DNA of 64,000 nucleotides from a virus (lineage: Duplodnaviria > Caudoviricetes), in IMG/VR virus record IMGVR_UViG_3300035325_000364, positions 1,876 to 65,875 of that record; one strand, written 5' to 3'. Position 1 is the stretch's first letter; each line of letters opens with the position of its first letter. The position numbers were made by a program, and so were the translations under genes. The notes below the pieces were generated by a model. The model ran no database searches and was not told where the DNA came from. It saw only the letters and a list, made by a program, of their open reading frames with translations. Below are positions 6,621 through 24,770 of this stretch, in pieces.

Positions 6621-7214
6621 TCAGGCAGCCGATTCCTCGGCTGCCTCTTTATTTTCAACGTCGAGGCTCAGCTGCTGCTCGTCCTCGGCCTTGAATGTCC
6701 ATGTCAGCTGGGCTTTGAACTCGCCGTCGCCCATGTTCTCGATAGTGCAGACCCAGCCCTCGCCCTCAACGGTCAGCTCGTCATCGTCGCGGGTGGTCGC
6801 TGCGGCCTTCGCCAGAACACTCTCACCGGCGAGCGCAACGGCCTCGTTCGCTCTGGCGACTTCGAGGGAGTGCAGCAGCCACTGCGCCGCCTTCTCGATT
6901 GTGCGGACCATCTTGGTGGAGTAGAGGATGTCGGCCTGTGCGCGACTGGTCCCGACCGTGATGTCCATGACGTTGCTCTTGCTCTCGAAGTTTGCCTGTC
7001 CCTGCGCGTGAACCTTCGTCCAGCGGCTCTGCTTGAAGTTGGTGCTCATTGTTTTGTCCTCCTTTTTGGTTTCGGTGATTGTGGTGTCAACCGGCTCGGC
7101 GGTTGTGATATGGGCTTCGTACTCGGCCTTCTTGATGACGGTTTTCTTGCCGTCCTCAACGCGGTAGTAACGGTTCTTGCCGTTCTTGTCCTGCTTCACG
7201 ATGTACTCTGTCAT
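6621..7214 (-). CDS. hypothetical protein, first gene of the leftward accessory operon (start MTEYIV)
   Basis: AAGGAGG RBS at ~7224-7230; no promoter recognisable between it and the divergent ORF at 7257. Confidence 0.65.
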   Translation of the reverse strand: MTEYIVKQDKNGKNRYYRVEDGKKTVIKKAEYEAHITTAEPVDTTITETKKEDKTMSTNFKQSRWTKVHAQGQANFESKSNVMDITVGTSRAQADILYSTKMVRTIEKAAQWLLHSLEVARANEAVALAGESVLAKAAATTRDDDELTVEGEGWVCTIENMGDGEFKAQLTWTFKAEDEQQLSLDVENKEAAEESAA

Positions 7215-7235
7215 TGTGTTTGTCCTCCTTTTGCT

Positions 7236-7270
7236 CAAATCCGGTAGACCATTGAGATGGTGCGTGTTGC
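7236..7270 (+). other. hybrid att-like recombination site (left): P-arm CAAATCCGGTAGACCAT + TGAG core + B'-arm
   Basis: 9-bp TGAGATGGT (7253-7261) is the inverted copy of 21544-21552; arm is 14/17 identical to 21532-21548. Confidence 0.7.
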
Positions 7271-7835
7271 ATTACGAGGTCGGACAATCTTGTGTGCAGG
7301 TATCGGAGTGCTGCTGATAGCAGTAACTATGGCATCGTGCGGAGACGGAAGTGCTGAGGACAACGGCACTGCCAAACCCTCGACGATTGCTGGGGTCGCT
7401 CAAACGAGAGCGATAACGCCTGAGACGCATACGCAGTTTCGGGCTGCGGCAGACACGATTTCAGAGGATGTTCTGGAAACGGTCTCGCCGAGCGAAACAA
7501 CAAACCCGTGGACAAAAGATGAGCTGGATGCAATAGCCACCACCCTTGCGGGCGAGTGCTACGATGACAAGGTTCAGGACAAGCGCAAGGTATGTGAGGT
7601 CATTCTTAACCGCGTGTCGTGCGACGGATTTCCTGATACCGTGCTTGGCGTTTTAACCTACCCCAATGCCTTTTGCGGTTACTGGTCTCAATCCAGACAA
7701 GCGACAGAAAGTGATTACGCTGTCGCAACACAGGCTCTGCGGGACTGGTATGGCAACGGGTGTCAGCCGTTGTCAAACTACCTATTCTTTGAAGCTGGCG
7801 AAAATCGTGAAAACGTGTTCCGCGAGGAATACTGA
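7257..7835 (+). CDS. SleB-like cell wall hydrolase (Hydrolase_2) with signal/lipoprotein-like N-terminus
   Basis: LAGEC...VILNRV..FPDTVLGV..YPNAF pattern; hydrophobic N-terminus ending MASC; ATG has no RBS in the present orientation. Confidence 0.7.
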   Translation: MVRVALRGRTILCAGIGVLLIAVTMASCGDGSAEDNGTAKPSTIAGVAQTRAITPETHTQFRAAADTISEDVLETVSPSETTNPWTKDELDAIATTLAGECYDDKVQDKRKVCEVILNRVSCDGFPDTVLGVLTYPNAFCGYWSQSRQATESDYAVATQALRDWYGNGCQPLSNYLFFEAGENRENVFREEY

Positions 7836-7858
7836 AAAATTCTAAGGAGGACAAATCT

Positions 7859-8332
7859 ATGTTTGAAATGAAAATTACCCTTGAAGCCCCGCAGCTTGCT
7901 GCGTCGATTGAGCATCTTGCAACGACGCTCTATATGCAGCACGGATTGTCTGCGGCCCCTACGGTACAGGCCCCTACCCCCGCACAGCAGACCGCCTCTG
8001 TCCCGCAGCCCACGGCTCCAACACAGCAGACTACCGCAGCGGCCCCTGCCCCCCAGCCTCCCGCCATGCCTACGGCTCCCGCCGCTGCTCCGGCCCCGGT
8101 AGCGCCTAATTCTCCGGCTGTGCCGCCCGCTGCTGGTATGCCTTTAGCACCGCCCCCGCAATACACGGTGGACCAAATCATGCAGGCCGGAGCAACCCTG
8201 ATGGATGCCGGTAAGGTTCAAGAGCTGATGAACCTGCTGCACAGCTTTGGTGTCAACGCCGTAATGGACCTGAAACCGGAACAGCTTGGCGCGTTCGCTA
8301 CTGAGATGCGCAAGCTGGGGGCGCAGATATGA
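7859..8332 (+). CDS. Pro/Ala-rich protein typical of APSE-like replication modules
   Basis: AAGGAGG RBS; low-complexity linker and helical C-terminus; precedes DUF2800. Confidence 0.65.
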   Translation: MFEMKITLEAPQLAASIEHLATTLYMQHGLSAAPTVQAPTPAQQTASVPQPTAPTQQTTAAAPAPQPPAMPTAPAAAPAPVAPNSPAVPPAAGMPLAPPPQYTVDQIMQAGATLMDAGKVQELMNLLHSFGVNAVMDLKPEQLGAFATEMRKLGAQI

Positions 8333-9516
8333 GCGCCCATGCCCTACTGTCCCCATCCAGCGCCCACCGCTGGCTAAACTGCACTCCCGCTCCCCGGCTT
8401 GAAGCCACGCTCCCCGAAAGGACGAGCGAGTATGCGCAGGAGGGGACGCTGGCTCACAGCGTTTGCGAAATCAGCGCCAAGAAGAAATTCAAGAAGGTCA
8501 AGGCGGCTGAGTACAACAAGGAAATCAAGAAACTCAAAAAGCGCGAGCTTTGGGACGACGAAATGCTCCACACGGCAGAAACCTATGTGGAGCACCTGTC
8601 AGAGCGGGCTATGGGTTTTGAGAACGAGCCGTATGTCACGTTCGAGGTCAAGGTTGACATCAGCGATTATGTACCGGAGGCGTTCGGTCGCTGCGACTGC
8701 GTGATGTTCGGCGGTGAAACGCTCATCATTACGGACTACAAGCACGGAAAGGGCGTACCCGTAGATGTTGTAGAGAATCCTCAGATGATGCTCTACGCCT
8801 TGGGTGCATTAAAGCTCTACCAGCCACTATTTGGCGGGGCAATCAAAACAGTGGAGATTTATGTGGACCAGCCCCGTATCAACTCCTACGATGGGTGGCA
8901 GGTCAGCGTTGAGGATTTGCTGGCGTGGGGTGCGGAGATAAAGCCGAAGGCTCAGATGGCGTATGCAGGCTTCGGAGAATACCATGCTGGTGATTGGTGT
9001 CGGTTCTGCCGTGCCAACGGTATGTGCAAGGCACAGGCTGAGCAGATGACATCGGCACTTGATGATTTCGGCGCGGTGTCTGGCAACAACCCGGCGCTCC
9101 TGACCCCGGAGCAGATGAGCGAGGCTTTGGAAAAGGGCGGCTGTCTTGTGGAGTGGTACAAAAAGCTCCAAGACCTGTCCCTCGAAGCAATTCTGTCTGG
9201 TACGAAAATCCCCGGCTACAAAGCTGTGGAGGGTCGGAGCGTCCGAGTATGGTCCGACCAAGACAAGGCCCTTGAAACGCTCTTGTCTAACGGTGTGGAG
9301 CGGGCAGTCATCTATGATAGTGTTCCTAAAACTCTGGCGCAGCTGGAAAAGGTCTTGGGAGCAAAGCGGTTTACCGAGCTCGTTGGCGAGTTCGTAACCA
9401 AGCCGCAGGGCAAGCCCTCGCTTGCAACTGCGGAGGATAAACGCGCAGAATTTAACAGCGCCGTTGCGGATTTCGCGGGTGTTGCTAAAGAGAAAAACAG
9501 TGCAGAGCAAAGTTGA
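8329..9516 (+). CDS. DUF2800 PD-(D/E)XK (Cas4-like) nuclease
   Basis: HALLSPSSAHRWLNC, FGRCDC, ITDYKHGKG, NPQMMLYALG, WCRFC. Confidence 0.88.
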   Translation: MSAHALLSPSSAHRWLNCTPAPRLEATLPERTSEYAQEGTLAHSVCEISAKKKFKKVKAAEYNKEIKKLKKRELWDDEMLHTAETYVEHLSERAMGFENEPYVTFEVKVDISDYVPEAFGRCDCVMFGGETLIITDYKHGKGVPVDVVENPQMMLYALGALKLYQPLFGGAIKTVEIYVDQPRINSYDGWQVSVEDLLAWGAEIKPKAQMAYAGFGEYHAGDWCRFCRANGMCKAQAEQMTSALDDFGAVSGNNPALLTPEQMSEALEKGGCLVEWYKKLQDLSLEAILSGTKIPGYKAVEGRSVRVWSDQDKALETLLSNGVERAVIYDSVPKTLAQLEKVLGAKRFTELVGEFVTKPQGKPSLATAEDKRAEFNSAVADFAGVAKEKNSAEQS

Positions 9517-9531
9517 AAGGAGAAAAAAGTT

Positions 9532-10242
9532 ATGTATAACAACATTCCCACGAAAGTCCTGACCGGAGAGGTTCGCCTGTCCTATGTCAACCTCATTCAG
9601 CCGAGGGCGAACAACAACGACCCCAACGCAGAGCCTAAATACTCCGCAACCCTGCTTATCCCCAAGAGCGATGAGGTTGTTTATCAAAATATCCTGAGCA
9701 GCATCGAAGCTGCGGCCGCGGATGCTCAAAGTAAGATTTGGAACGGTGTACGGCCTCCGGTCATGCCTATCCCGATCCACGACGGCGACGGTGTTCGTGA
9801 AAACGGCACACCTTACGGCCCTGAATGCAAGGGCTGTTGGGTAATTACCGCGTCCACCAAGCAGAAGCCGCAGGTTGTACATCAGAGCGACATCAATACG
9901 GAGTTGCTGCCACAGGACATCTATTCCGGTATGTGGGGGCGTGTCACGATTAACTTCTTTGGATACGCACGTGCTGGCAAGAAGGGCATTGGTTGCGGCC
10001 TCGGCAACGTGATGAAAACCCGCGATGACGAACCGCTGTCCGGTGGCGCGTCCGCTGCGGCAGACTTCGCTGGCGTAGGCCAGACCGTCGGCGCTCCTGC
10101 TACGCCCAATTACGGTGCGGCAATGCCCGCTACCCCCGGCCAGATGACATACCCCAACACAGGTGCGGCGATGCCCAATCCGATGGGTGTCCAGCCGAGG
10201 CAGATTAACCCTCTCACTGGTCAGCCGTTTTACGGGGCGTAA
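9532..10242 (+). CDS. DUF2815 single-stranded DNA-binding/annealing protein
   Basis: GEVRLSY, PKYSATLLIPK, IHDGD, YSG.WGRV.INF, GIGCGLGNV. Confidence 0.85.
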   Translation: MYNNIPTKVLTGEVRLSYVNLIQPRANNNDPNAEPKYSATLLIPKSDEVVYQNILSSIEAAAADAQSKIWNGVRPPVMPIPIHDGDGVRENGTPYGPECKGCWVITASTKQKPQVVHQSDINTELLPQDIYSGMWGRVTINFFGYARAGKKGIGCGLGNVMKTRDDEPLSGGASAAADFAGVGQTVGAPATPNYGAAMPATPGQMTYPNTGAAMPNPMGVQPRQINPLTGQPFYGA

Positions 10243-10252
10243 GCAGTAAAAA

Positions 10253-10296
10253 GACGAGCGACCGATAGCCTTATCAGTCGCTCGTCTCGATTTTTC
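10253..10296 (+). terminator. intrinsic terminator-like hairpin
   Basis: GACGAGCGAC...GTCGCTCGTC stem followed by a T tract. Confidence 0.6.
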
Positions 10297-10312
10297 TAAG
10301 GAGGACAATCCT

Positions 10313-10711
10313 ATGACCCCCATTGATTGGATTGATATTCAGTCTGAATATCATGAGATGGAAAGAATGTCTTGTGTCCCTGCTGGTATCCGAAAGGTAC
10401 GGGCAGACCACGTTTTCGATGAGAATCAGTCTGTTCTCTGGAATCGGAAACAGGTGGAGGATAACAACCAGCGCTTTCAGGAAGAAGTCGCTCGGCTAAA
10501 TACCGAAAAGAATAAGCGGCGTGACGCTATCTACGAGAAAATCTACAAAGCCATCCAAGATGAAGTGGGCCACGGCTTGACGCGAAAAAAGGCTGTGGTC
10601 TTGTGGAATCTCGCTTATGAAAGAGGACACGCGTACGGCATCAAGGAAGTTAAGTCGTATCTGGATGAGCTGATGGAGCTGGCAGCTTTGCTGCTTGATG
10701 ATATGAGGTGA
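10313..10711 (+). CDS. hypothetical protein
   Basis: AAGGAGG RBS, 132 aa. Confidence 0.6.
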   Translation: MTPIDWIDIQSEYHEMERMSCVPAGIRKVRADHVFDENQSVLWNRKQVEDNNQRFQEEVARLNTEKNKRRDAIYEKIYKAIQDEVGHGLTRKKAVVLWNLAYERGHAYGIKEVKSYLDELMELAALLLDDMR

Positions 10712-10714
10712 GCT

Positions 10715-11062
10715 ATGGTATTCACGATTGAGTGGCCTACGGGCTACATGGACCTAAATATCGGTAAATTCTTTGTCGAAGCCAATAAGAGGCAAATTCG
10801 TAAGGCGATGCGGTTGGCAAAGCAGTATTGCGATAACAACCAGCGCAAAGAGCTTATTACGGAAATGAACAACGAAATTAAATCTCGCACAGTGGCACTC
10901 GACCGCTGCGGCGAGCTGGAATTTGAGCGCGAACAAATCCTGCGACCGTTTTTGGGTTTGTTAGCTAAACGTCCACTTCCGCCGCAGGAAAAGCGGCTCA
11001 CAGAGCAGTGTGACCGTTTGAAATGGTGCGTTGACCTGATAGAGAATGAAAGGTGGGGATAG
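10715..11062 (+). CDS. hypothetical protein
   Basis: GAGGTG RBS, in operon. Confidence 0.55.
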   Translation: MVFTIEWPTGYMDLNIGKFFVEANKRQIRKAMRLAKQYCDNNQRKELITEMNNEIKSRTVALDRCGELEFEREQILRPFLGLLAKRPLPPQEKRLTEQCDRLKWCVDLIENERWG

Positions 11063-11279
11063 TATGAGCTATGTGAAAAACACGATAGCACACCAGCGCA
11101 TCACTGCGTACTTAGCGGCATTTGATGATTGGGAGCGCAGGAACAAAGAGGCACAGGAGGCGTGGGAGCGGCTGGTTAAAAGCGTCCACCAGATGACCGA
11201 CTATGATAAGAAGGTCTTTGAGCGTGTGTTTGAGAAGTGGATAAAGGAGGCCAAAAATGCTGCATCATCTGTCGATTGA
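11046..11279 (+). CDS. hypothetical protein (start probably MSYVK)
   Basis: fills the gap between neighbours in the operon. Confidence 0.5.
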   Translation: MKGGDSMSYVKNTIAHQRITAYLAAFDDWERRNKEAQEAWERLVKSVHQMTDYDKKVFERVFEKWIKEAKNAASSVD

Positions 11280-13242
11280 CCTTGAAACTTACAGCAGCGT
11301 TCCGATTGCAAAGGCGGGTGCGTACAAATACGTCCAGAGCCCCGATTTTGAAATCCTGCTGTTTGCGTACAGCGTTGATGGAGAGCCGGTGCAGATTGTG
11401 GACTTAGCACAGGGAGAGATACTTCCTGATTGGCTTTACCGCTCTATCACTGACCCCGCTTTCATTAAACACGCATACAACGCTGCGTTTGAGTGGTATT
11501 GCCTGTCAAAATTCTGTGGGCTGCTCCTGCCTGTGGAACAGTGGCGCGATACTATGCTCCACGGCCTCTACTGCGGTTATACCGCTGGTCTGGACGCAAC
11601 AGGCAAGGCGCTGGGCCTTCCTGCTGAAAAGCAGAAACTCTCTATGGGCAAGGCACTCATTCGTTACTTCTGTGTTCCTTGTAACCCCACTCAGGCGAAC
11701 GGCGGCAGGACACGGAACCTGCCGAAGCACGACCCCGATAAATGGGAGCTGTTTAAGACCTACTGCCGGGGTGACGTTACCACCGAAATGGAGATTGAGC
11801 GGCGGCTATCTAACTTCCCTGTGCCGGATGCAGTCGAGAAACAGTGGCAGACCGACCTCATCATCAACGCTCGCGGCGTTGCTGTGGACATGAGTATGGT
11901 GCAGGGTGCTCTCCATATCGGGGACAGCACGAGAGAGCAACTGATGGCAGAGGCTACGGAGCTCACAGGGCTTGAAAACCCCAACAGTATTCAGCAACTC
12001 ATGGGCTGGCTGGAACCGAGGGTTGACGATATGGTAACGGACCTTCGTAAAGAGACCGTTGCTACAATGCTCGAAAACGGGACCGCCAAAGATGAAGCAG
12101 CGCGAGTGTTGGAAATCCGGCAGGAGCTGGGAAAGACCAGCACCAAAAAGTACGATGCCATTGAAGCGGCGGTCTGCTCCGATGGACGCGTCCGGGGGTT
12201 GCTGCAATTCTACGGCGCGAACCGAACAGGCCGATGGGCTGGGCGGCTGGTGCAGGTCCAAAACCTACCGCGCACTTACATCGGGCAGTTACCGCTGGCA
12301 CGAGAGGCGGTCAGAAACAAAGAGGCTGACAAGTTGCGGCTGCTCTACGGTTCTATCCCTGACACCCTTTCCCAGCTCATCCGCACGTCATTTGTGGCAT
12401 CGCCGGGGAACAAGCTCGTAGATGCGGACTTTTCAGCAATCGAAGCGCGGGTTATCTCGTGGCTTGCTGGCGAGCAGTGGCGGCTGGAAGTGTTCAGGAC
12501 GCACGGCAAAATCTACGAAGCGTCGGCATCGCAAATGTTCGGAGTGCCTATTGAGAAAATCAAAAAGGGCAACCCCGAATATGCGCTGCGGCAAAAGGGC
12601 AAGGTCGCTGAGCTGGCGCTTGGCTATCAGGGCAGCTCTGGCGCACTCGTAGCGATGGGCGCTTTGAAGATGGGGATTCCAGAGAGCGACCTGCCAGACA
12701 TTGTTTCTCGCTGGCGGGAATCAAACAGGCGCATTGTGGACCTGTGGTACAGTCTCGAAAGCGCGGCGGTGTCCGTCATCGAAAGCGGTTCTCCCGCAGG
12801 GGTGAGGAACCTCATCCTGATGCGGGAGATAGACCCTGCGAATGGGCTGGACTACCTCACGATTACCCTGCCGAGCAAGCGGAAACTGTATTACGCCCAT
12901 CCAAGCCTTACGACAAACGAATGGAACAAGCCGTCTATTCTCTATTACGGCTCTAACCAGACCACAAAGCAATGGTCGCAGCTTGAAACCTACGGCGGCA
13001 AGTTGGTGGAGAATGTGGTACAGGCAATCGCCCGCGACTGCCTTGCAGTGGCGATAGAGCACTTGGAGGCGGCGGGATTCCCCGTAGTGTTCCACGTCCA
13101 TGACGAGGTAGTCATCGACATTCCAGAGGACAAGGCAAACCTCGATGAAGTGGTGCGGCTGATGACGCCGCCGATACCGTGGGCTCCCGACCTGCCGCTG
13201 AACGCGGATGGCTGGATAGGCGATTTCTTCAAGAAGGATTAA
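11257..13242 (+). CDS. family A DNA polymerase (phage type)
   Basis: IDLETYS exonuclease I motif, LIRYFC, RTGRWAG, DFSAIEAR (motif A), RQKGKVAELALGY (motif B), VHDE (motif C). Confidence 0.95.
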   Translation: MLHHLSIDLETYSSVPIAKAGAYKYVQSPDFEILLFAYSVDGEPVQIVDLAQGEILPDWLYRSITDPAFIKHAYNAAFEWYCLSKFCGLLLPVEQWRDTMLHGLYCGYTAGLDATGKALGLPAEKQKLSMGKALIRYFCVPCNPTQANGGRTRNLPKHDPDKWELFKTYCRGDVTTEMEIERRLSNFPVPDAVEKQWQTDLIINARGVAVDMSMVQGALHIGDSTREQLMAEATELTGLENPNSIQQLMGWLEPRVDDMVTDLRKETVATMLENGTAKDEAARVLEIRQELGKTSTKKYDAIEAAVCSDGRVRGLLQFYGANRTGRWAGRLVQVQNLPRTYIGQLPLAREAVRNKEADKLRLLYGSIPDTLSQLIRTSFVASPGNKLVDADFSAIEARVISWLAGEQWRLEVFRTHGKIYEASASQMFGVPIEKIKKGNPEYALRQKGKVAELALGYQGSSGALVAMGALKMGIPESDLPDIVSRWRESNRRIVDLWYSLESAAVSVIESGSPAGVRNLILMREIDPANGLDYLTITLPSKRKLYYAHPSLTTNEWNKPSILYYGSNQTTKQWSQLETYGGKLVENVVQAIARDCLAVAIEHLEAAGFPVVFHVHDEVVIDIPEDKANLDEVVRLMTPPIPWAPDLPLNADGWIGDFFKKD

Positions 13243-13252
13243 GGAGGACAAC

Positions 13253-13897
13253 ATGAAAATTATCAACCCGTCATTTGAAATCATTGGAAACGTAGACGGC
13301 TCTGCTATCGTGCGCCACATCGAGAAGTGCGGCAGGGTATGTTACAAGTCGGAGGATAGAATTACCGACGACAGCGCGGAGAAGTTCGTCGCGGGCATTA
13401 TCCAGCGCGGTCACGAGGCGGTGCTGGAACACGCCAGTGTCACGGTCAAGTTCATTTGTGACAGAGGCGTGAGCCACGAAATCGTCAGGCATCGGCTGGC
13501 CTCATTCTGTCAGGAAAGTACCCGCTACTGCAATTATTCCAGTGACAAGTTTGGCAGTGAGATTACTGTTATCAGGCCGTGCTTCACAGATGAAAACGAA
13601 ATGGGCTTTAATCGCTGGAAATCAATTTGTGAAGCAGCCGAGAGGTCATATTTTATGCTTCTGGACTTCGGCTGGTCTCCGCAGGAGGCCCGCGCTGTTC
13701 TGCCTAACTCTCTAAAAACAGAGGTCGTTATGACAGCTAACCTCAGAGAATGGCGGCATTTTCTGAAACTGCGTACCGACAACGCCGCCCATCCGCAGAT
13801 GCGAGAGATGGCACGGCCGCTGCTCTGCACGATGCAGGAGCTTGTGCCAGTCGTGTTTGACAACATTACGTGGAGGGATTACTGTGATGCGAATTGA
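13253..13897 (+). CDS. thyX: flavin-dependent thymidylate synthase
   Basis: RHRLASFCQESTR matches RHRx7SxR; NLREWRHFLKLR. Confidence 0.93.
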   Translation: MKIINPSFEIIGNVDGSAIVRHIEKCGRVCYKSEDRITDDSAEKFVAGIIQRGHEAVLEHASVTVKFICDRGVSHEIVRHRLASFCQESTRYCNYSSDKFGSEITVIRPCFTDENEMGFNRWKSICEAAERSYFMLLDFGWSPQEARAVLPNSLKTEVVMTANLREWRHFLKLRTDNAAHPQMREMARPLLCTMQELVPVVFDNITWRDYCDAN

Positions 13898-14345
13898 GAA
13901 GGACGACTACTACATCGGCATCGCAAGCGCCGTCTCGAAGCGGTCTACCTGCCTACGGCGGCAATACGGCGCAGTCATCGTGGTAAACGATGAGATTGTT
14001 TCCACCGGCTACAACGGTGCTCCACGCGGACAGGAGAATTGCTGTGACAGCGGTGTGTGCATCAGGAACGAGCTGAATGTCCCCAAGGGCGAACGCTACG
14101 AGCTTTGCAAGGCTCTCCATGCTGAGATGAACGCCATCATCAGCGCGGCCCGCAAGGACATGATTGGCGGGACAATGTACATCTCCGGCTATGAGGCCGA
14201 TGAGGGTTGCGCTGACCCGACCTGCTGCCTGATGTGCCGCAGATTCATACGGAACGCAGGAATCATCCGTGTCATCGGCAACTTCAACGGAACAGCGAAA
14301 GAAATTGATGTTAGAGAGGGGGCAATGACCCATGAACAGGGCTGA
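13887..14345 (+). CDS. dCMP/deoxycytidylate deaminase
   Basis: RSTC.RRQYGAVIV, TGYNGAP, HAEMNAI and CxxC Zn motifs. Confidence 0.9.
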   Translation: MRIEKDDYYIGIASAVSKRSTCLRRQYGAVIVVNDEIVSTGYNGAPRGQENCCDSGVCIRNELNVPKGERYELCKALHAEMNAIISAARKDMIGGTMYISGYEADEGCADPTCCLMCRRFIRNAGIIRVIGNFNGTAKEIDVREGAMTHEQG

Positions 14346-14637
14346 AATTTTAGATGCCGCTCGCGTCTGCGTATGCGGGCAGCGGGAACAGGAATACGGA
14401 AAGCCGGAGGATAACTTCAATACAATCGGGCTGCTGTGGAGCGTTTACCTTAACGCCGCGCACCCTGAGTATACAAAGGCTTTCCCCTACAACGGCATCA
14501 CGGCAAAGGATGTTGCGACCATGATGGCGTTGCTCAAAGTGGCTCGTACCGCCACTGGCAGCAGCCCCGACAGCTTCGTCGATTTGGCTGGCTACGCGGC
14601 CTGTGCTGGGGAAATCGCAACCCACGATGGGGAGTGA
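14332..14637 (+). CDS. DUF6378-like phage protein
   Basis: R...YG.PEDNF..I..LWS.YL and DSFVDLAGYAAC. Confidence 0.75.
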   Translation: MNRAEILDAARVCVCGQREQEYGKPEDNFNTIGLLWSVYLNAAHPEYTKAFPYNGITAKDVATMMALLKVARTATGSSPDSFVDLAGYAACAGEIATHDGE

Positions 14638-14860
14638 CAGAAAGCCCTCGGCGTACCGAAACGCCGAAGGGTATTATGACCCGACTGCTGGCGAGGCGTA
14701 CAGCAACATCACCGCAGACGAGCGTAAGCGCGATGCGGAACGTCTCGCTGCGATAAGCACCCTAATGCCTATCCTGCGGAAGGTGACAGAACTCGTAGGC
14801 TTTGAAATCGTTGGGCGTATCACATTCGCAGACAAAGAAACAGGCAAAAGGTACAAGTAG
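14603..14860 (+). CDS. hypothetical protein
   Basis: RNAEGYYDPTAGEA pattern common in phage early regions. Confidence 0.6.
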   Translation: MLGKSQPTMGSDRKPSAYRNAEGYYDPTAGEAYSNITADERKRDAERLAAISTLMPILRKVTELVGFEIVGRITFADKETGKRYK

Positions 14861-14954
14861 GAGGACAAAGTTATGCTTAAAACGATTGCACGTTTCGATA
14901 TGGGAAATCCCATAACGGCGTGATTATGGATATTACGAAGGGAGGCTGGCGCAG

Positions 14955-17390
14955 GTGCTGAATTATGACCGAAAGATAACAATTACGACTGGCAACAATC
15001 GAAAAAGCATAAACTGGCGGCCCCTTACGACCACGCTGTCTGAGTTCTATGAGAAGTTACGGATTCCAAGCCGTTCAACGGAAACGATGGCAGAATACCT
15101 CGCGCTTAAAAAGTCGGAACAGGATGACCGTAAGGACATCGGCGGCTTTGTTGCGGGTAGCCTCAACGGTCCCCGCCGCAAGGCGGGGGCTGTTACGGGG
15201 CGCGACATCATTACGTTGGACTTTGACACAATACCACCGGGAGGAACCGATGAAATTCTCAAACGAGTGGAAGGGCTGGGCTGTGGCTACTGCATCTATT
15301 CCACGCGCAAACACGCCCCTGCCAGTCCGAGGCTACGTCTGTTGTTCCCACTTGACAGGACAGCTACCGCTGATGAGTATGAGCCGATTGCGCGGTATGT
15401 AGCGTGGAGCATAGGGATTGAGTTTGCAGACCCTACCACCTTTGAAGCCACTCGCCTGATGTACTGGCCCAGCTGCTGTGCCGACAGCGAGTATGTGTTC
15501 AATTATGGTGATAAACCGATGCTCTCTGTGGACGGGCTGTTGGCGGCGCTGGACCAGAGTATCGGAGACTGGCGTGATGTATCGCGGTGGCCCCAAGTAC
15601 CCGGTGCGGATAACGCATACAAAAAGCTGGCAATGAAACAGGTTGACCCGCTGAGTAAGAACGGCGTGGTCGGGGCGTTTTGCCGGACATACGACGTTTA
15701 CGGCGCGATGGACACCTTTCTCGACGGCATCTATGCCCCTGTGGACGATTCGCGTGGACGCTATACCTATCTTGGCGGCAGCACAACGGGCGGTGCAGTC
15801 ATCTACGACAACGGAATGTTCCTATACTCCCACCACTCTACCGACCCATGCTGTGGAAAACTGGTAAACGCTTTCGACCTCGTGAGGCTGCACAAGTTTG
15901 GCGACTTGGACGATAGTGCAGACCCGAAAACGCCGACGAACCGGCTCCCGTCATACACGGCGATGTGCAATCTTGCCATAGCGGACACGCGGGTCTCGCG
16001 GCAGATAGCAAAGGAACGAGCCGATTCTGCGGTCAGCGATTTCAGCCAGTTGGCGCAGGTGTCAGACAGCGAGGATGCAGAGGGGCCAGACCTGAATTGG
16101 ACGCAGAACTTGGAGCTGAACAGCCAGTCTGGGGCTATAAAGGCCACGATAGACAACATCTGGCTCATTTTAGAGAATGACCCGAACCTCAAAGGCAAGT
16201 TTGCGCTTAACGAGTTTGCGGGGCGCGGAGAGATATTGGGCGACCTTCCGTGGAGCCCGTTTGAGAAACGCCGCGCATGGACAGACAACGATAATCAGGG
16301 GCTTTACTGGTACTTTGAAAAGGTCTACAAAATCACCGGAAACGGCAAAATCGACGGTGCTCTTTCACTCCACAGCGAGAAGCACAAGTTCAACGACGTG
16401 TGGAATTTCCTCTCAGGGCTGACATGGGACGGAGTGCCGCGGCTCGACACTCTGCTCATTGATTACCTTGGAGCCGCCGACAGGCCGTATGTCAGAGCTG
16501 TCACACGCAAGGCATTTACGGCGGCGGTGGCGCGGGCAATGGAGCCGGGGTGCAAGTATGACACCATGCTGATTCTCGTCGGGCCGCAGGGCATCGGTAA
16601 GTCCACCCTGCTGGACAAGATGAGTAAGGGGTGGTTTAACGACGGCATCCGCACCTTCGAGGGCAAGGAGGCCAGCGAGCTGCTGCAAGGCGTATGGTTG
16701 ATAGAGATTTCGGAGTTAGAGGCGTTCAGGCGTACCGGGGATGAGGCTCGTATCAAGCAGTTCCTTTCGCTTCGCTCAGACCGCTTTCGGGCGGCGTATG
16801 GGCGGCACGTCAAGGACATACCACGCTGCTGTGTGTTTTTCGGTTCCACGAACACGCCGGTGTTCCTGCATGACCGCACAGGCGGTCGTCGGTTCTGGCC
16901 CGTTGACGTTGGCGTACAGGAGCGAAAGAAATTCGTATGGGCGCATCTGGACGATGAGATAGACCAAATATGGGCCGAGGCGGTCATGCGCTGGCGGCTG
17001 GGCGAGCAGATTTACCTTACCGGAGACGTGGAGCAGGACGCCAAGAAAGAACAGGAGGCCCACCGCGATGTCAGCAGTAAGGAGGGCATCATCATCGACT
17101 TCATCAACCGTCCCGTCCCCGCAGACTGGCAGAAATGGCCCTTAGATAAGCGCCGCATTTGGCTCAACGGCGAGGCGGTCACAGAGGGTACAGAGTTAGT
17201 TTTGCGTGACAGAGTGTGCGCATTGGAGATATGGTGCGAAGCCTTTGGAGGGCAGGTGCGGGACTTTCGATATTCGGAATCGACAGAGATAAACGACATC
17301 CTGCGGTCACTGCCGGAGTGGGAGAAAACCCCAAACGGGCTGCGCTTTGGCTACTGTGGGTATCAGCGTGGATTTTTAAGGAGGACGTGA
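14955..17390 (+). CDS. VirE (virulence-associated E) primase-helicase
   Basis: N-terminal primase-like region (KDIGGFVAG, YSTRKH, RLMYWPS); Walker A GPQGIGKST; FFGSTN; RRFWPV. Confidence 0.9.
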   Translation: MLNYDRKITITTGNNRKSINWRPLTTTLSEFYEKLRIPSRSTETMAEYLALKKSEQDDRKDIGGFVAGSLNGPRRKAGAVTGRDIITLDFDTIPPGGTDEILKRVEGLGCGYCIYSTRKHAPASPRLRLLFPLDRTATADEYEPIARYVAWSIGIEFADPTTFEATRLMYWPSCCADSEYVFNYGDKPMLSVDGLLAALDQSIGDWRDVSRWPQVPGADNAYKKLAMKQVDPLSKNGVVGAFCRTYDVYGAMDTFLDGIYAPVDDSRGRYTYLGGSTTGGAVIYDNGMFLYSHHSTDPCCGKLVNAFDLVRLHKFGDLDDSADPKTPTNRLPSYTAMCNLAIADTRVSRQIAKERADSAVSDFSQLAQVSDSEDAEGPDLNWTQNLELNSQSGAIKATIDNIWLILENDPNLKGKFALNEFAGRGEILGDLPWSPFEKRRAWTDNDNQGLYWYFEKVYKITGNGKIDGALSLHSEKHKFNDVWNFLSGLTWDGVPRLDTLLIDYLGAADRPYVRAVTRKAFTAAVARAMEPGCKYDTMLILVGPQGIGKSTLLDKMSKGWFNDGIRTFEGKEASELLQGVWLIEISELEAFRRTGDEARIKQFLSLRSDRFRAAYGRHVKDIPRCCVFFGSTNTPVFLHDRTGGRRFWPVDVGVQERKKFVWAHLDDEIDQIWAEAVMRWRLGEQIYLTGDVEQDAKKEQEAHRDVSSKEGIIIDFINRPVPADWQKWPLDKRRIWLNGEAVTEGTELVLRDRVCALEIWCEAFGGQVRDFRYSESTEINDILRSLPEWEKTPNGLRFGYCGYQRGFLRRT

Positions 17391-17391
17391 G

Positions 17392-17625
17392 ATGTATGAA
17401 GATTTGCATCAAAAGCGTAGACCCAAAGTTCCAAAATGCCTTCAAGCTAACGGTATTCGCGGATTTTTAGGAGTTTTGAGCCCGTCAAAAGTCTATTCCA
17501 GCGATTCATTGGAGGCAAAAACATTCTTTGATGGGGTGCTAAAATACCGTATCTACAAACGTGCCGCTGGCAAGGATGAATGGCATCGTGCCTACCGGCA
17601 ACACCGATTGAATAGGAGGACATAG
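17392..17625 (+). CDS. hypothetical protein
   Basis: starts directly after the primase-helicase stop. Confidence 0.4.
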   Translation: MYEDLHQKRRPKVPKCLQANGIRGFLGVLSPSKVYSSDSLEAKTFFDGVLKYRIYKRAAGKDEWHRAYRQHRLNRRT

Positions 17626-17627
17626 AG

Positions 17628-17825
17628 ATGTATCTGGCGACAAAAGACGGCATTTCCGAGACCCCAAGACTGAGGCCAATTAAGGCGCTGTTTTGTAAGC
17701 ACCGCCATATCATAGCCGGTAAGGCTTGCAGTAAAAACGGACTGCGGAGAATTTCGGGGCTTGATGTGTATGTGGTCTGCATCGATTGCGGAAAGGTGCT
17801 TCACGAAAACCACACAAATTATTAG
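17628..17825 (+). CDS. small Cys/His protein
   Basis: GGAGG RBS; C.H and CIDC motifs. Confidence 0.5.
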   Translation: MYLATKDGISETPRLRPIKALFCKHRHIIAGKACSKNGLRRISGLDVYVVCIDCGKVLHENHTNY

Positions 17826-17834
17826 GAGGATGCC

Positions 17835-18152
17835 ATGAGGGTCAAGAAGTATAAGGGCAAGGTGTTCGGTGCTGACTTGACCGCAGCCGAGAAAAAGGCA
17901 ATGGACATCGAGATAAAGCGGCAGCTCGCGGAGTACGAACGGAATCATGCCATCGAACTCGAAGCAATCATTCTGTGGGTGCTCCATGAGCAGCTGGGCT
18001 TTGGCGAGAAACGGCTGCGGCGATTCCACGACGGGTTTGCGCCGGAGATTGACGCCCTGCTAAAACGGTACGAGATGGACGATGCAGATGAGACCTGGCT
18101 TTGTATGAAAAAGCTCAAAGACGTTGGTATCGACATCACAAAATGGGCCTGA
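17835..18152 (+). CDS. hypothetical protein
   Basis: GGAGG RBS; LHEQLGFGEKRL pattern. Confidence 0.6.
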   Translation: MRVKKYKGKVFGADLTAAEKKAMDIEIKRQLAEYERNHAIELEAIILWVLHEQLGFGEKRLRRFHDGFAPEIDALLKRYEMDDADETWLCMKKLKDVGIDITKWA

Positions 18153-18459
18153 AACACTGAAACATCTGAATGAAACATCTGAATTTCATTCACACATTAG
18201 GGATAAAGGGAAAGTTTTAGGCTGGAAATTCAACACAATGTTTCAGCCTCGAATGTTTCAATGTTTCGGGCATTGTTTCACCAATGTTTCAGGCTAAACC
18301 CTTGATATTACTGGCTTTTCAGCCTTTTGAAACATTGAAACATTCAAATCATAACTCAGGTAAAAATAGAGAGATTAGAGGAATTAGAGGGTATTGCGTA
18401 CCTCTCTAATATCCCTAATGCCCCTAATCTCATAAAAAGTATGGGAGACCAATGTTTCA
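18150..18459 (+). repeat. ori-like iteron element copy 1
   Basis: non-coding; many TGAAACA(TT)/(AA)TGTTTCA iterons in both orientations, central CCCTTGATATTAC, ATTAGAG/CTAAT repeats; lies just downstream of the primase-helicase gene cluster. Confidence 0.7.
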
Positions 18460-18473
18460 GGAGGTAAAAGCAC

Positions 18474-18761
18474 TTGAAAGAGAGCACAATCGAACGGCAT
18501 TTGGTCGAGGGCGTAAAGCGCCTCGGCGGTATGTGCATAAAGTTCACAAGCCCCGGAACACCCGGCGTTCCAGACCGGCTTATCATCACTTCGGAAGGTA
18601 GGATAATCTTCGCAGAGCTGAAAACGGAGGTCGGCTATCTGTCGAAAATCCAGAAGTACACAATCGGGCAGATGATGAAACGGGGCGCAGATGTGAGGGT
18701 GGTTAAGGGCATTGACGGCGTGAGACAGCTTTTAGCTGAAATCGAGGGAGGCGGTATCTGA
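18474..18761 (+). CDS. VRR-NUC domain nuclease
   Basis: ESTIE..L...VK..GG...KF.SPG..GVPDR, FAELK. Confidence 0.9.
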   Translation: MKESTIERHLVEGVKRLGGMCIKFTSPGTPGVPDRLIITSEGRIIFAELKTEVGYLSKIQKYTIGQMMKRGADVRVVKGIDGVRQLLAEIEGGGI

Positions 18762-20131
18762 TGAAGTTTGTACCCTACCCCTACCAGCAGTATTGCATCG
18801 ACAGCATTATCTACAACAGGGCTGTTGGGCTGTTTCTCGATATGGGGTTAGGCAAGACGGTGATAACCCTGTCAGCGATACACGACCTGCGGTACAATCG
18901 GTGGGAGGTTCAAAAGCCTCTTATCGTTGCCCCAAAAACAGTCGCGGAGGCGACATGGACAAAAGAGGCGGCAAAGTGGGACCACCTCAAAATGATGAGG
19001 GTCATTCCGGTTCTTGGGACACAGCAGCAGCGCCTTCGGGCGTTAGCGACACCAGCAGACGCATACGTCATCAACCGTGAGAATGTCCCTTGGCTGGTCG
19101 AACACTTCAAAAACGCTTGGCCTTTCGATATGGTGGTACTGGATGAAAGTTCCAGTTTCAAAAACTCACAGAGTAAGCGGTTCAAGGCATTGAAGCTGGT
19201 GCGGTCACGCATCCGACGAATCGTAGAGCTGACCGGCACCCCATCAAGCAACGGTTTGGAGGACCTGTGGGCGCAGATTTACTTACTTGACGAGGGCGCA
19301 CGTTTGGGTCGCACTATTTCAGCGTACCGGCAGATGTACTTTGCCCCCGGCAAGCGGAACAGGACAACGGTTTTCAGTTATGAGCCGATGGAGGGTAGTT
19401 TTGACAGAATCAAACAGGCCATCAGCGACATCTGCATAAGCATGAAAGCGGAGGACTATTTGACCCTCCCTGACGTGATGACGAATGATGTTCCTGTCAA
19501 GCTGGATGCCAAAGCGCAAAAGGCATATACGGAGTTGGAGACGGAGCTACTGTTGCAGGTTGATGAAAACACCATAACAGCCAGTAGCGCAGGTGTCTTG
19601 ACTGGAAAGCTGTTGCAGCTATGCAATGGAGCCATTTATGATGAGGACCGAAATGCAGTTCCGGTTCACGACTGCAAAATCAACGCATTCATGGAGTTGG
19701 TGGAGCAGTTGAACGGGCAACACGCTTTGGTGTTCTACAACTTCCAGCACGACCGCGACCGGCTGTTGGAGGCGCTGGCCCCTACTGGCCTTCGAGTGCG
19801 GGTGTATTCTCAGGCAAAGGATGAGCAGGACTGGAACAACGGAGAGGTTGACATCCTGTTAGCGCATCCTGCCAGCTGTGGCTACGGTTTGAATTTACAG
19901 CGCGGCGGTCATCATGCGGTCTGGTTCGGGCTGACGTGGAGCTTGGAGCAATACGAACAGGCAAACAAGCGTCTGCACCGGCAGGGGCAGGAACACCCGG
20001 TTGTTATCCACCACCTGATAGCGCAGGGCGGTATGGATGAGGTAGTTATCGAGGCTCTGCAAAGCAAGGGCGATATGCAGGGTGCTTTGATGGATGCCCT
20101 TCGAGTACGAATCAACAAAGTTCGCAGTTAA
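18761..20131 (+). CDS. SNF2-family helicase
   Basis: DMGLGKT, LDESS, LTGTP, GLNLQ, QANKRLHRQGQ. Confidence 0.92.
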   Translation: MKFVPYPYQQYCIDSIIYNRAVGLFLDMGLGKTVITLSAIHDLRYNRWEVQKPLIVAPKTVAEATWTKEAAKWDHLKMMRVIPVLGTQQQRLRALATPADAYVINRENVPWLVEHFKNAWPFDMVVLDESSSFKNSQSKRFKALKLVRSRIRRIVELTGTPSSNGLEDLWAQIYLLDEGARLGRTISAYRQMYFAPGKRNRTTVFSYEPMEGSFDRIKQAISDICISMKAEDYLTLPDVMTNDVPVKLDAKAQKAYTELETELLLQVDENTITASSAGVLTGKLLQLCNGAIYDEDRNAVPVHDCKINAFMELVEQLNGQHALVFYNFQHDRDRLLEALAPTGLRVRVYSQAKDEQDWNNGEVDILLAHPASCGYGLNLQRGGHHAVWFGLTWSLEQYEQANKRLHRQGQEHPVVIHHLIAQGGMDEVVIEALQSKGDMQGALMDALRVRINKVRS

Positions 20132-20150
20132 AAAAGGAGGTGGCACAGCT

Positions 20151-20633
20151 GTGAAAAAAGAGGAAATCGCTGAGATTGCAAGAGTGGCGGCGCAGGAAGT
20201 CCTTGCTAAGAAAGACGAGATGCTGGATGATGAGTATGATTCCCGGTATCACGATGTCAACCTGTTGATGAAGAATTACCGCAAGCTCAAAACGCATTAC
20301 GCCCACGTTTCGCCGGAGGCTTTAGAGGTCAACGCCATTTGTTCCATGCGCCGCAAGACCGGTCTGATGATGAGCCACGTTGACAAGATGCTGGCGGCAT
20401 ACAAAGCCATTTGTCACGAGGCATTGAACCAAGACGAGGCTCGCCGGTGGGATTCTCTGTACCTCCGGTACATAGACGATGAGCGGCTGAGTGTTGATGA
20501 AATCGCCGAGCGGTTGAATATTGAGAAGCGGACATTCTACCGAGACATCAACAAGGCGATGGAGGATATGGCGGTTCTGCTGTTCGGCATAGAGGCAATC
20601 GGCAGTTGGAAACACAAAGGCGGGAAAAAGTGA
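20151..20633 (+). CDS. sigma-70 region 4-like transcriptional activator (RinA/ArpU-like)
   Basis: GTG start after GGAGG; C-terminal HTH LRYID...IAERLNIEKRTFYR. Confidence 0.7.
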   Translation: MKKEEIAEIARVAAQEVLAKKDEMLDDEYDSRYHDVNLLMKNYRKLKTHYAHVSPEALEVNAICSMRRKTGLMMSHVDKMLAAYKAICHEALNQDEARRWDSLYLRYIDDERLSVDEIAERLNIEKRTFYRDINKAMEDMAVLLFGIEAIGSWKHKGGKK

Positions 20634-20637
20634 GACG

Positions 20638-20676
20638 GAGAGGGCTTGTCAGCAACTGAGACAAGCCCTCTCTTTC
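20638..20676 (+). terminator. intrinsic terminator ending the replication operon
   Basis: 13-bp stem GAGAGGGCTTGTC/GACAAGCCCTCTC plus T tract. Confidence 0.75.
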
Positions 20677-20699
20677 ACAGAAATTTTTCAGAAAAACGA

Positions 20700-20728
20700 T
20701 TGACAAAACACCTATATAGGTGTATAAT
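20700..20728 (+). promoter_or_regulatory. sigmaA promoter with palindromic operator (20708-20723)
   Basis: TTGACA-17-TATAAT with ACACCTATATAGGTGT in the spacer. Confidence 0.88.
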
Positions 20729-20792
20729 AGAATTGAGCATTGCCGTTCGCAGGAACGGCTCTTAATTTATACCCACGAGGGAGGTGGAGCCT

Positions 20793-21089
20793 TTGTATAA
20801 GCTGATAGGCCCAGATGGAAAGCAGTATCTGTCAGAAGAACCGGGAACGCTCGGCGGTCATCGGGGCATGAAAATCTATGGCAAACTGGATTGCCGGTCT
20901 GCCCTCCAAGCGATTGCCAGACCGACGGGCGGGACATACATCAGTAACCGCGTGTTCTTCGCCGACGAGCAGACAGCGATTGCGGCGGGCTACCGCCCCT
21001 GCCACACCTGTATGCGCGAGCACTGGAAACTGTGGCAGGAAGGTAGGCTCGATGAATTTTTTCCAAAAAATTTTTCCGAAAAGGCTTGA
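20793..21089 (+). CDS. Ada-type metal-binding domain protein, copy 1 (TTG start)
   Basis: RVFFADEQTAIAAGYRPCHTC resembles the Ada N-terminal Zn domain; GGAGG RBS. Confidence 0.8.
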   Translation: MYKLIGPDGKQYLSEEPGTLGGHRGMKIYGKLDCRSALQAIARPTGGTYISNRVFFADEQTAIAAGYRPCHTCMREHWKLWQEGRLDEFFPKNFSEKA

Positions 21090-21119
21090 CATTACACCTA
21101 TATAGGTGTATACTATAAT
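21086..21119 (+). promoter_or_regulatory. sigmaA promoter with palindromic operator (21093-21110)
   Basis: TTGACA-17-TATACT; 18-bp palindrome TACACCTATATAGGTGTA. Confidence 0.85.
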
Positions 21120-21256
21120 TAGTACGAAGGAAGAAAGCTAAGAGGATAAAACAGAATGTGGACAAGCCCCACTCGCCTTACGAGGTTTCAAAGTGGCAAG
21201 CGCAATGCGAAAGGCAACCTCTTAGCTCATAACTAAAAAATCAGGAGGACAAGAAC

Positions 21257-21412
21257 ATGATGAGACCTATGACTTACATCGAGGAATTGGAAAACGCGCT
21301 GGTCGAGCTGCTGGGTGCTATCTGCGAGACCGACGATGATGCGGAGCTTGCATCACTCACTCGGCAGTATGAATACTGCGAGGCTGAGCTGGTTTTCATG
21401 GCAGTTGCCTAA
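21257..21412 (+). CDS. acidic 51-aa protein, absent from the ORF track
   Basis: AGGAGG RBS; MMRPMTYIEELENALVELLGAICETDDDAELASLTRQYEYCEAELVFMAVA. Confidence 0.6.
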   Translation: MMRPMTYIEELENALVELLGAICETDDDAELASLTRQYEYCEAELVFMAVA

Positions 21413-21449
21413 TCTGAAAAATTTTCCCGAAATTTTTTCAGAAAAACGC

Positions 21450-21478
21450 TTGACAAAGTAGCCTAAAAGTCGTATAAT
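21450..21478 (+). promoter_or_regulatory. consensus sigmaA promoter pointing across the right att-like site
   Basis: TTGACA-17-TATAAT with A/T-tract UP-like element; no convincing sense gene downstream in the present orientation. Confidence 0.8.
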
Positions 21479-21531
21479 GAGAATATAAAGAAAATAATGC
21501 GACCGCGCAGAAACCACTACGGGTTGTTAGG

Positions 21532-21570
21532 CAAATAGGGCAGACCATCTCAGTAATTTGAATCACCTCA
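21532..21570 (-). other. hybrid att-like recombination site (right): B-arm + TGAG core + P'-arm (minus strand)
   Basis: minus strand reads ...CAAATTAC-TGAG-ATGGTCTGCCCTATTTG; inverted partner of 7236-7270. Confidence 0.7.
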
Positions 21571-21786
21571 TTGCTTTACTACCGCCATGCGGCGGCTTTT
21601 CTTCTGCCGAAAATCGTACTGGCTTTGATAAGTCTCGCAGTCGAACGATGTTTCCCGATAATAAACGCCGCTCCTGTACCACTCTCGCAAAACCCGTTCT
21701 CCGTCCCGCAATTCCGGCATTTCGGCCTTTGCCTGCTCTGCCAGCTCCGTTGCTACTGCAAGCAGAACAGCCGGTGTGGAGCTCAC
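21568..21786 (-). CDS. 72-aa protein in the cro operon; candidate recombination directionality factor
   Basis: ATGA-coupled to cro; stop abuts the att-like site; function inferred from position only. Confidence 0.55.
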   Translation of the reverse strand: MSSTPAVLLAVATELAEQAKAEMPELRDGERVLREWYRSGVYYRETSFDCETYQSQYDFRQKKSRRMAVVKQ

Positions 21787-21998
21787 TGATTTCCACTACT
21801 GTCATCGTAGCTGTCGGCCAGCAGTTCCTCAATGGTACAGCCGTAAAGCTCTGCCAACTTCGGCAGCTTGTCAGCACGGGGTTTAGCGATTCCGCGTTCC
21901 CACTTGCTGACTGCGGATTCCTTCACGCCGACGGCCTTTGCTACTTCGCGCTGTGTGGGAATTGCCCCGCGCAGCCTCCGCTCGCGCATGACGTTCAT
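21783..21998 (-). CDS. Cro-like XRE helix-turn-helix protein
   Basis: PTQREVAKAVGVKESAVSKWERG..PR...LPKLAELYGC; divergent from the repressor. Confidence 0.88.
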   Translation of the reverse strand: MNVMRERRLRGAIPTQREVAKAVGVKESAVSKWERGIAKPRADKLPKLAELYGCTIEELLADSYDDSSGNQ

Positions 21999-22036
21999 GC
22001 TCTCACCTCCTTCTGAAAGCCTCAGCGGTTCGCTTT

Positions 22037-22172: not shown

Positions 22173-22586
22173 ATGGACGGATTTGGAGAACGACTTAGAA
22201 GATTGCGGAAAGCACGTGATATTACACAGAGCGACCTTGCGGAGTACATCGGGGTGGTTCCCTCTGCCGTGGGTAAATATGAACGGCTGGCAGATTCCTA
22301 CCCCAGCGTTGAGGCCCTTATCAAAATCAGCGAGTATTTTGATGTGAGCATCGACTACCTGCTGAAAGGTACAATGCCGAGCGGGAACGTGGAGAACAAC
22401 CTAAACGGCCTGATGACAAACAGCCCATTCATCCAAGCAAACAACGGCGGGGTCGTATTCAACGGCGACGGCTCCATCTCACCGGAGGCGATGGAGCTGC
22501 TGCGCATCTATGAAAAGCTGGGCGGGCGCGACCGCCTAAAGCTCCTGAATTTCGCCGTTGACCTCGAAGGAGGTCAGACCACATGA
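22173..22586 (+). CDS. CI/ImmR-like XRE repressor lacking an S24 peptidase domain
   Basis: N-terminal HTH (ITQSDLAEYIGV..SAVGKYER); short helical C-terminus. Confidence 0.88.
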   Translation: MDGFGERLRRLRKARDITQSDLAEYIGVVPSAVGKYERLADSYPSVEALIKISEYFDVSIDYLLKGTMPSGNVENNLNGLMTNSPFIQANNGGVVFNGDGSISPEAMELLRIYEKLGGRDRLKLLNFAVDLEGGQTT

Positions 22587-24768: not shown

Positions 24769-24770
24769 TC

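Follow-up and report, generated by a model that had tools for sequence, protein, structure and literature searches.

The large serine integrases of the phages phiC31, Bxb1, TP901-1 and A118, together with SprA/SprB of SPbeta, combine a three-domain recombinase with a phage attachment site (attP) made up of imperfect inverted arms flanking a central dinucleotide, and recombine by conservative exchange into hybrid sites termed attL and attR. For enzymes of this class it is established that the integrase alone sets one state and that the integrase together with a directionality factor resets it (PMC5737554, PMC1470463). Engineered memory switches based on Bxb1 and phiC31 work in the same way, inverting a segment as attP and the bacterial attachment site (attB) are turned into attL/attR, with the factor resetting the device (PMC4111918, PMC11891168). 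Here, we analyzed a stretch of 64,000 nucleotides (hereafter the window), corresponding to bases 1876-65875 of the 65,875-bp IMG/VR record IMGVR_UViG_3300035325_000364, which comes from a ~67-kb temperate phage of gut Clostridia. The 14.3-kb replication block of this phage is a site-specifically invertible segment (7256..21550, ~14.29 kb), and both of its orientations are known at 99.9-100% identity. We consider it probable that the inversion is run by the phage integrase and controls the replication block in accordance with lysogeny and induction.

The locus resembles those of the phages listed above in its three-domain recombinase, in an attP with imperfect inverted arms and in the conservative exchange to hybrid attL/attR-type sites, whereas the setting of direction by a factor, established there, is something that we infer here. 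Unlike those integrases, the enzyme of this phage is accompanied by a second, inverted site pair inside the phage, so that 14.3 kb of its own genome inverts. Furthermore, attP lies ~26 kb from the integrase gene (int), and the chromosomal target is highly variable. Inversions by serine recombinases that alter gene expression, as here, are also known from Gin/G of Mu, Cin/C of P1, Hin, Pin and Min. In systems of the Gin/Hin/Cin type, a small invertase of ~190 amino acids (aa) with a C-terminal helix-turn-helix (HTH) is encoded beside the segment and acts on two near-identical inverted sites, whereas the present phage has only a 466-aa integrase and unlike hybrid sites that share one arm and 9 bp. 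Moreover, the Gin/Hin type depends on an enhancer with Fis and flips tail-fiber or flagellin genes stochastically, while the cargo here is a replication module. In skin/sigK, SPbeta/spsM and Anabaena fdxN/XisF, a large serine recombinase restores a split gene, much as the ribosome-binding site (RBS) and start codon of a hydrolase gene are restored here. However, these are excisions that mend a host gene in development, in contrast to an inversion that rewires a phage early operon. The mycobacteriophages BPs and Brujita have an integration-dependent immunity, in which a phage gene is altered by the phage's site-specific recombination, so that lysogeny is stabilized. Unlike the present phage, they use a tyrosine integrase, carry attP inside the repressor gene and do not invert a segment. 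The engineered switches follow the set/reset logic proposed here; they are synthetic, whereas the present system would be a natural life-cycle control. In the literature, integrase inversion is described as an engineered device, or inversion by small invertases acts on tail-fiber segments; no natural integrase inversion of a phage replication module was found, with subscription journals lying outside the coverage of this search.

The two block edges carry related sites. The left site (7236-7270) consists of a 17-nt arm, CAAATCCGGTAGACCAT, followed by TGAG and ATGGTGCG..., and the right site (21532-21569) reads CAAATAGGGCAGACCAT, CTCA, GTAATTTGAATCACCTC. An earlier note on this DNA had described arms that are direct on the + strand and identical at 14/17 positions, cores TGAG and CTCA, and an inverted 9-mer common to both edges, which is TGAGATGGT; all of these were confirmed, and the arm pattern is limited to these two places within the window. 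More specifically, the left P-type arm (TTTTGCTC + CAAATCCGGTAGACCAT; 7229..7252, + strand) lies outside the invertible segment and directly before the core in all relatives, and the left core TGAG occupies 7253..7256 (+), the joints of flipped contigs falling on 7253-7261. The right P-type arm TAGGCAAATAGGGCAGACCAT (21528..21548, +) lies inside the segment and shares its motif with the prophage ends. It is followed by the right core CTCA (21549..21552, +) and by the B arm (21553..21569, - strand), which reads GAGGTGA (an RBS) and then ATT ACT GA. The probable crossover dinucleotides are GA at 7254-7255 on the left and its reverse complement TC at 21550-21551 on the right. The edge sites share one direct arm of 17-21 nt and the inverted 9-mer, while their other arms are unrelated. 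Each border is a hybrid of one P-type and one B-type half-site and is hence attL/attR-like, and the hybrids derive from recombination of an internal attB-like site with an internal attP-like one, in which TGAG separates the arm from its inverted form.

Flipping at the core had been predicted to rebuild a 38-bp attP-like and an attB-like site (35 nt), both of which are absent from the window itself. The attP-like site is present exactly in two public assemblies, ERZ14864648 NODE_430 and ERZ28661307 scaffold_898, and the attB-like site exactly in NODE_430. This 65-kb contig joins window positions 24498-21544 to 7253-9522 (99.97% and 100% identity). At a second joint, 19091-21552 (100%) is linked to the accessory operon, read downward from 7261; identity on the accessory side is only 84.7% over 3.1 kb, owing to a variable region farther from the junction. 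The contig therefore holds both reciprocal junctions, 14,291 bp apart, and its coordinates suggest that it is circularly permuted. scaffold_898 joins the segment end and the accessory operon at 99.92% and 99.97%. With the exception of the accessory side of NODE_430, flipped junctions from the window's lineage have flanks that match the window at 99.9-100% identity. The joints overlap only on the 9-mer and no bases are gained or lost, as is also the case in contig L298 of a relative. The exchange is conservative and reciprocal and occurs at the central dinucleotide.

Both orientations were also sought among relatives, as the earlier note had proposed, and were found in three lineages besides that of the window. 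A degenerate pattern of the attP-like junction matched three IMG/VR contigs. Alignments between flipped and unflipped siblings, at 94.5-98.9% identity, break exactly at the core, and in these three contigs the alignment continues beyond the break on the other strand of the accessory operon. The left-arm pattern occurs at 26 IMG/VR loci (among them L083, probably a chance match), three of which have a flipped junction (two contigs and L064); of the remainder, one contig is cut at the core and the others are unflipped. Genome and metagenome contigs contained 55 relatives; of these, a script marked two as flipped, and a third (L139) was recognized by eye. Besides the three IMG/VR contigs, flipped junctions occur in the contigs L166, L211 and L139 from metagenomes or metagenome-assembled genomes, as well as in the Logan contig L292. 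L316 and L313 both contain the internal attP-like site, with TGAG between the arm and its inverted counterpart. Scans of IMG/VR for the reciprocal junction of the B and B' arms (B.B'), with an exact and a loose pattern, yielded no true match; B.B' junctions were found in metagenome contigs via protein look-up. L298 shows the complete flipped gene order along with the reciprocal B.B' junction. The genome-length flipped contig ERZ1673722 NODE_339 runs from the lysis genes through int, cI, cro, a 76-aa gene, the hydrolase gene (174 aa) and DUF2800 to PolA, VapE, SNF2, the attP-like site, the accessory operon and an intact terminal attP.

Each contig shows one orientation per junction, and the two available isolates show only that of the window, as would be expected if the forms were stable isomers that arose by a few evolutionary inversions, with each strain fixed and no ongoing switching. 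We regard this as improbable, since four lineages each contain both forms at 98.8-100% identity (including L139 versus L078/L134/L157), the flanks in the window lineage agree at 99.9-100%, and flipped forms are never integrated. Furthermore, three IMG/VR contigs break at the points where the two forms diverge: 036441 and 051099 start exactly 55 nt before the divergence point, and 032650 stops at the last base common to both. Contig ends at these points are the pattern expected of an assembly graph that holds both junctions.

The arrangement is retained in related phages. A total of 33 IMG/VR loci encode an integrase 55-82% identical to that of the window; all of those reaching the right junction are collinear with the window, and the left junction is collinear as well in 5/5 full-length relatives. 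At ~70-76% nucleotide identity, more than 25 relatives still have both internal sites and the layout, which answers the call of the earlier note for a conserved internal site in related phages. The layout kept across such diverged relatives rules out a one-off accident, although it does not by itself show flipping. In relatives, the left site follows the consensus TTTTGCTCAAAT..G.A....ATTGA directly before the hydrolase gene, and the right-site consensus TAGGCAAAT....GCAGACCAT.TCAG persists even beside unrelated left-hand sequence. Within the right arm, TAGGCAA is invariant in ~25 relatives although the sequence to its left differs, and the center, GA on the left and TC on the right, is constant in every genome read by eye (the window and G001-G005). 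A back-translated-pattern search of IMG/VR recovered no relatives of the 197-aa gene that lies to the left of the junction, whereas exact look-up did find this gene, and a megablast search of 7000-22000 against the GenBank phage collection returned no match.

Misassembly of the window junctions was ruled out as well. A contig from one isolate (run X15, which may be the same source as the window DNA) spans 6500-22500, and contigs from a second isolate of another study (X20) cross both junctions without differences, so that the layout is not an assembly error. In addition, the shared repeat measures only 9 bp, and the SPAdes, MEGAHIT and Logan assemblies yield the same junctions. Runs X5 and X2 had coverage only on the repeated promoter cassettes. 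Strand-changing joints were absent from the four runs mapped to the window, all of which are contigs, and contigs drop minority forms.

The enzyme most likely responsible is encoded next to the repressor. The large serine recombinase (466 aa; 22583..23983, +) has the Pfam domains Resolvase, Recombinase and Zn_ribbon_recom (E-values of 1e-36, 6e-18 and 1e-12, respectively), and its catalytic-site block YIRVST is invariant in 12 relatives. A search of the record for a second serine or tyrosine recombinase found none, making this integrase its sole site-specific recombinase. The internal arm motif, TATAGGCAAAT.CAGC..AC.AT, also sits at the prophage ends, pointing outwards. In G002 both contig ends coincide with the motif, in G001 it lies at 3098 (-) and 63206 (+), where phage homology stops, and in G003 it stands exactly where phage homology yields to genes resembling those of an integrative and conjugative element (ICE). 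A reading of G003 as a tandem dimer was ruled out by its single int copy and by the ICE-like genes beyond the phage end. The phage sequence ends in ...CAT C TT on one side and in ...TAT C AA on the other, as seen in 7 contigs of the relative clade (one end) and in 7 + 7 contigs of the window's lineage (either end), and a different host sequence follows the phage end in each of more than 20 contigs. Because it ends the prophage at host junctions, the arm motif is recognized as a P-type half-site of the integrase. Interpretations of the motif as a mere operator, promoter or coding start were dropped in view of its presence at prophage ends and flipped junctions; those of the right arm as the start of a small open reading frame (ORF) on the - strand and of the left site as a leaderless promoter were likewise dropped. 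Since the internal sites have a half-site in common with the prophage ends and the record has a single recombinase, we propose that this large serine integrase most likely runs both reactions, judging from the sequences of the sites.

An intact terminal attP, with CTTG between the arm and its inverted counterpart, is present in 6 IMG/VR contigs and in L289. The attP of this phage is located among the accessory genes and does not adjoin int. The chromosomal reaction crosses over at the central TT. As the internal sites have GA at their center, no cross-reaction between the two is expected. The integrase uses many sites: the same phage was found beside at least 14 different host genes (L322-L329, L337-L344), and the host targets share only the central TT and a weak preference. 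In two unflipped relatives, L290 and L293, the integrase gene is split into two ORFs in one and replaced by other genes in the other; such copies may no longer be able to leave the prophage orientation.

Further serine recombinases are encoded by the hosts themselves (G003:128-132 kb contains three), and inversion by such an enzyme, or by short-homology recombination, would not involve the phage integrase at all. This appears highly improbable, because the internal sites bear the half-site of the phage's own attachment junctions, the exchange is conservative on a 2-bp center within the attP-like palindrome, the shared 9-11 bp are too little for RecA-type recombination, and hosts of different genera contain the phage with this same layout.

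The orientation of the block correlates with whether the phage is integrated. All of the contigs with visible host flanks (at least 14) are unflipped, whereas 3/6 contigs with an intact terminal attP have the flipped junction and 3/6 the unflipped one (Fisher exact p ~0.02, computed by hand on contigs that are not fully independent). Flipped genomes were found only in non-integrated contigs. The integrase might nevertheless flip the block as a tolerated side reaction on a pseudo-site, with both isomers viable and no regulatory role; its acceptance of many unrelated targets (at least 20 different host flanks) and the occurrence of non-integrated genomes in both orientations are consistent with this view. 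We consider it unlikely. Every integrated copy examined is in one orientation, and lineages that have diverged by ~25-30% still have all four half-sites and the central GA in exactly the same places, where a pseudo-site would drift. Moreover, the hydrolase start is lost in many lineages while the detached RBS and start codon stay in frame, a point that bears directly on what the inversion does to the genes at the block edges.

The gene body of the hydrolase, a SleB-like lipoprotein hydrolase with Pfam Hydrolase_2 (7257..7835, +), begins with the B' arm and lacks an RBS in the window. In relatives, ATA, AAG or AGC replaces its ATG in ~8/18 distinct lineages (hand tally), and gene callers give a truncated gene or none at all in the prophage orientation. 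The B arm at the other edge of the block contains, in most relatives, an RBS followed by ATG or TTG ACT GA, in frame in every genome read; in the window the B arm has ATT at this codon, and its role is taken by the ATG at 7257. The B arm is a detached translation start of the hydrolase gene. The flipped contigs L298 (TTG ACT GAA ATA GCC...) and L306 show the in-frame fusion, and the B.B' junction of NODE_339 consists of an RBS and TTG ACT GAA ATA GCC..., as predicted. In flipped contigs the hydrolase is called longer and is coupled to the upstream gene. The loss of the start in the prophage form, together with the maintenance of the detached RBS and start codon in frame, indicates that selection has acted on the flipped form.

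At the left edge of the block, the divergent starts at 7214 (-) and 7257 (+) are 42 bp apart, with neither a sigma-70-like promoter facing the block nor a Shine-Dalgarno sequence before 7257, as the earlier note had observed. On the right, its remark that the cro operon stops early also held: in the window orientation, the cro promoter (22081-22053) reaches only the cro-like HTH gene (21783..21998, -) and a 72-aa gene translationally coupled to it (21568..21786, -). The cI-like repressor gene (22173..22586, +), with its promoter at 22118-22146, overlaps the integrase start. Flipping was expected to join the replication genes to the cro operon in a canonical order, and in flipped contigs cro, the 72/76-aa gene, the hydrolase gene and the replication genes are indeed contiguous, the full order being int, cI, cro, 72/76-aa gene, hydrolase, replication and accessory genes. 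Three consensus promoters on the + strand, at 20700-20728 (12/12 match), 21086-21114 (11/12) and 21450-21478 (12/12), lie at the right end of the segment and belong to repeat families D3/D4; flipping aims all three at the accessory operon. The predicted turning of promoter 21450 into the leftward operon is seen in L316, where this promoter is followed by the attP-like site and by the RBS and ATG of the 197-aa gene. Downstream of promoter 21450 and the right site, a terminator-like hairpin (21582..21595, +) lies in the 3' end of the 72-aa gene, which is on the other strand. Its stem varies among relatives with pairing kept (CCGCC/GGCGG, CGCCGC/GCGGCG, CCACC/GGTGG; by eye). Given this hairpin, a ~115-nt RNA antisense to the detached hydrolase start would arise from promoter 21450 in the prophage orientation.

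Promoter cassettes are located at 2563-2653, 20673-20734, 21059-21120, 24948-25039 and 59525-59616, and form a family in which a 16-bp palindrome (ACACCTATATAGGTGT) separates -35 from -10 and an A/T-rich tract lies upstream. Promoter 21450 has the upstream tract, and the palindrome is absent from it. A ~250-bp inverted repeat (18215-18459/43061-43304; 130 nt with 89% and 99 nt with 75% complementarity), which also occurs in relatives, has one copy in the replication block and one in the tail region, and the two copies become direct repeats after the flip.

As a whole, the proposed mechanism would operate as follows. The integrase, made only together with cI, would integrate the genome and set the block to the window orientation. 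In this state the block would face cro with no promoter in front of it and with its first gene deprived of RBS and start codon, and would probably be transcriptionally silent in the prophage. After derepression, the integrase together with a directionality factor would reverse both reactions. As a result of the flip, cro would be followed by the hydrolase and replication genes, and three strong promoters would point into the accessory operon, presumably at the time of induction. By analogy with known large serine integrases, the flip to the active state would likely need the factor. The 72-aa protein, which is 52-67% identical in 11 relatives with 12 invariant residues, is a candidate for this role, its gene being one of the two that the cro promoter would reach before the flip.

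Several observations weigh against this interpretation. The 72-aa protein belongs to no Pfam or PHROG family, and weak or unusual promoters may exist inside the block. The internal B-type arms have no clear likeness to the host targets, which is offset by the tolerance of the integrase for very different targets. Three contigs with an intact terminal attP (028045, 033494 and 081059) are unflipped, and these non-integrated, unflipped forms indicate that excision and flipping are separable and not strictly coupled; alternatively, these three are prophages in tandem or products of mixed assembly. In contig 051099 an unflipped left junction is combined with a flipped one, a mixture which implies that assembly from a mixed population can yield chimeric paths. 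Finally, the data consist of contigs only, and the two isolates show one orientation, so that switching inside one clone is something we infer.

The record is classed as a provirus, its edges are cut at gene borders and a terminal repeat is absent. It lacks the prophage ends because it was trimmed ~0.8 kb inside them. The phage was found in mouse-gut metagenomes from many studies and in isolates of one organism. Accessory genes occupy both window ends on the - strand, the left operon running from 7214 down to 1, and the - strand between 24 and 59 kb encodes the tail, portal, terminase, lysin and a diversity-generating retroelement. The replication block spans 7257 to about 21100 on the + strand. 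The earlier description of it as the sole large + strand block stands except for cI and the integrase gene, which are likewise on the + strand. Besides the hydrolase gene, it is annotated to contain a DUF2800 nuclease (8329-9516), a Gp2.5-like single-stranded DNA-binding protein (9532-10242), PolA (11257-13242), thymidylate synthase (13253-13897), a VapE primase-helicase (14955-17390) and an SNF2 helicase (18761-20131), all on the + strand; the invertible segment additionally holds small genes and the three promoters. Two paralogous small genes with an Ada-type zinc-binding domain (20793-21089 and 25392-25667, both +) are 72% identical in nucleotide sequence over 277 nt, the former belonging to the invertible block and the latter situated between int and the lysis genes.

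Other features of the window include a type II hammerhead ribozyme between accessory genes (1987-2051, -; Rfam 38.2 bits against a cut-off of 37), with a related sequence at 24700-24769 (repeat family D9). The diversity-generating retroelement (29288-31028, -) contains a reverse-transcriptase gene (RVT_1 in relatives), an RT-18 RNA (30499-30581, Rfam 78.9 bits) and template and variable repeats of 137 nt (30634-30770 and 30892-31028, 88% identical).

Phages of this kind are common in mouse and human gut metagenomes, and the presence of at least one relative in a culturable type strain, Butyricicoccus pullicaecorum DSM 23266 (FUXW01000002.1:120-141 kb), makes the idea directly testable. For annotation, prophage and virion forms of such phages may differ by a 14-kb inversion, and a gene may look start-less in the prophage. 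On balance, we lean slightly toward the view that a widespread family of gut Clostridia phages uses one integrase with two orthogonal site pairs, with the internal pair acting as a memory lock on prophage replication and with commitment tied to the excision factor. If true, this would be a natural set/reset integrase switch and would provide orthogonal site sets for one integrase. If the proposed control holds, a layer of DNA rearrangement beyond the repressor would be added to the lysis-lysogeny decision, in which a replication operon is cut from its promoter and start codon and repaired by the very enzyme that excises the phage.

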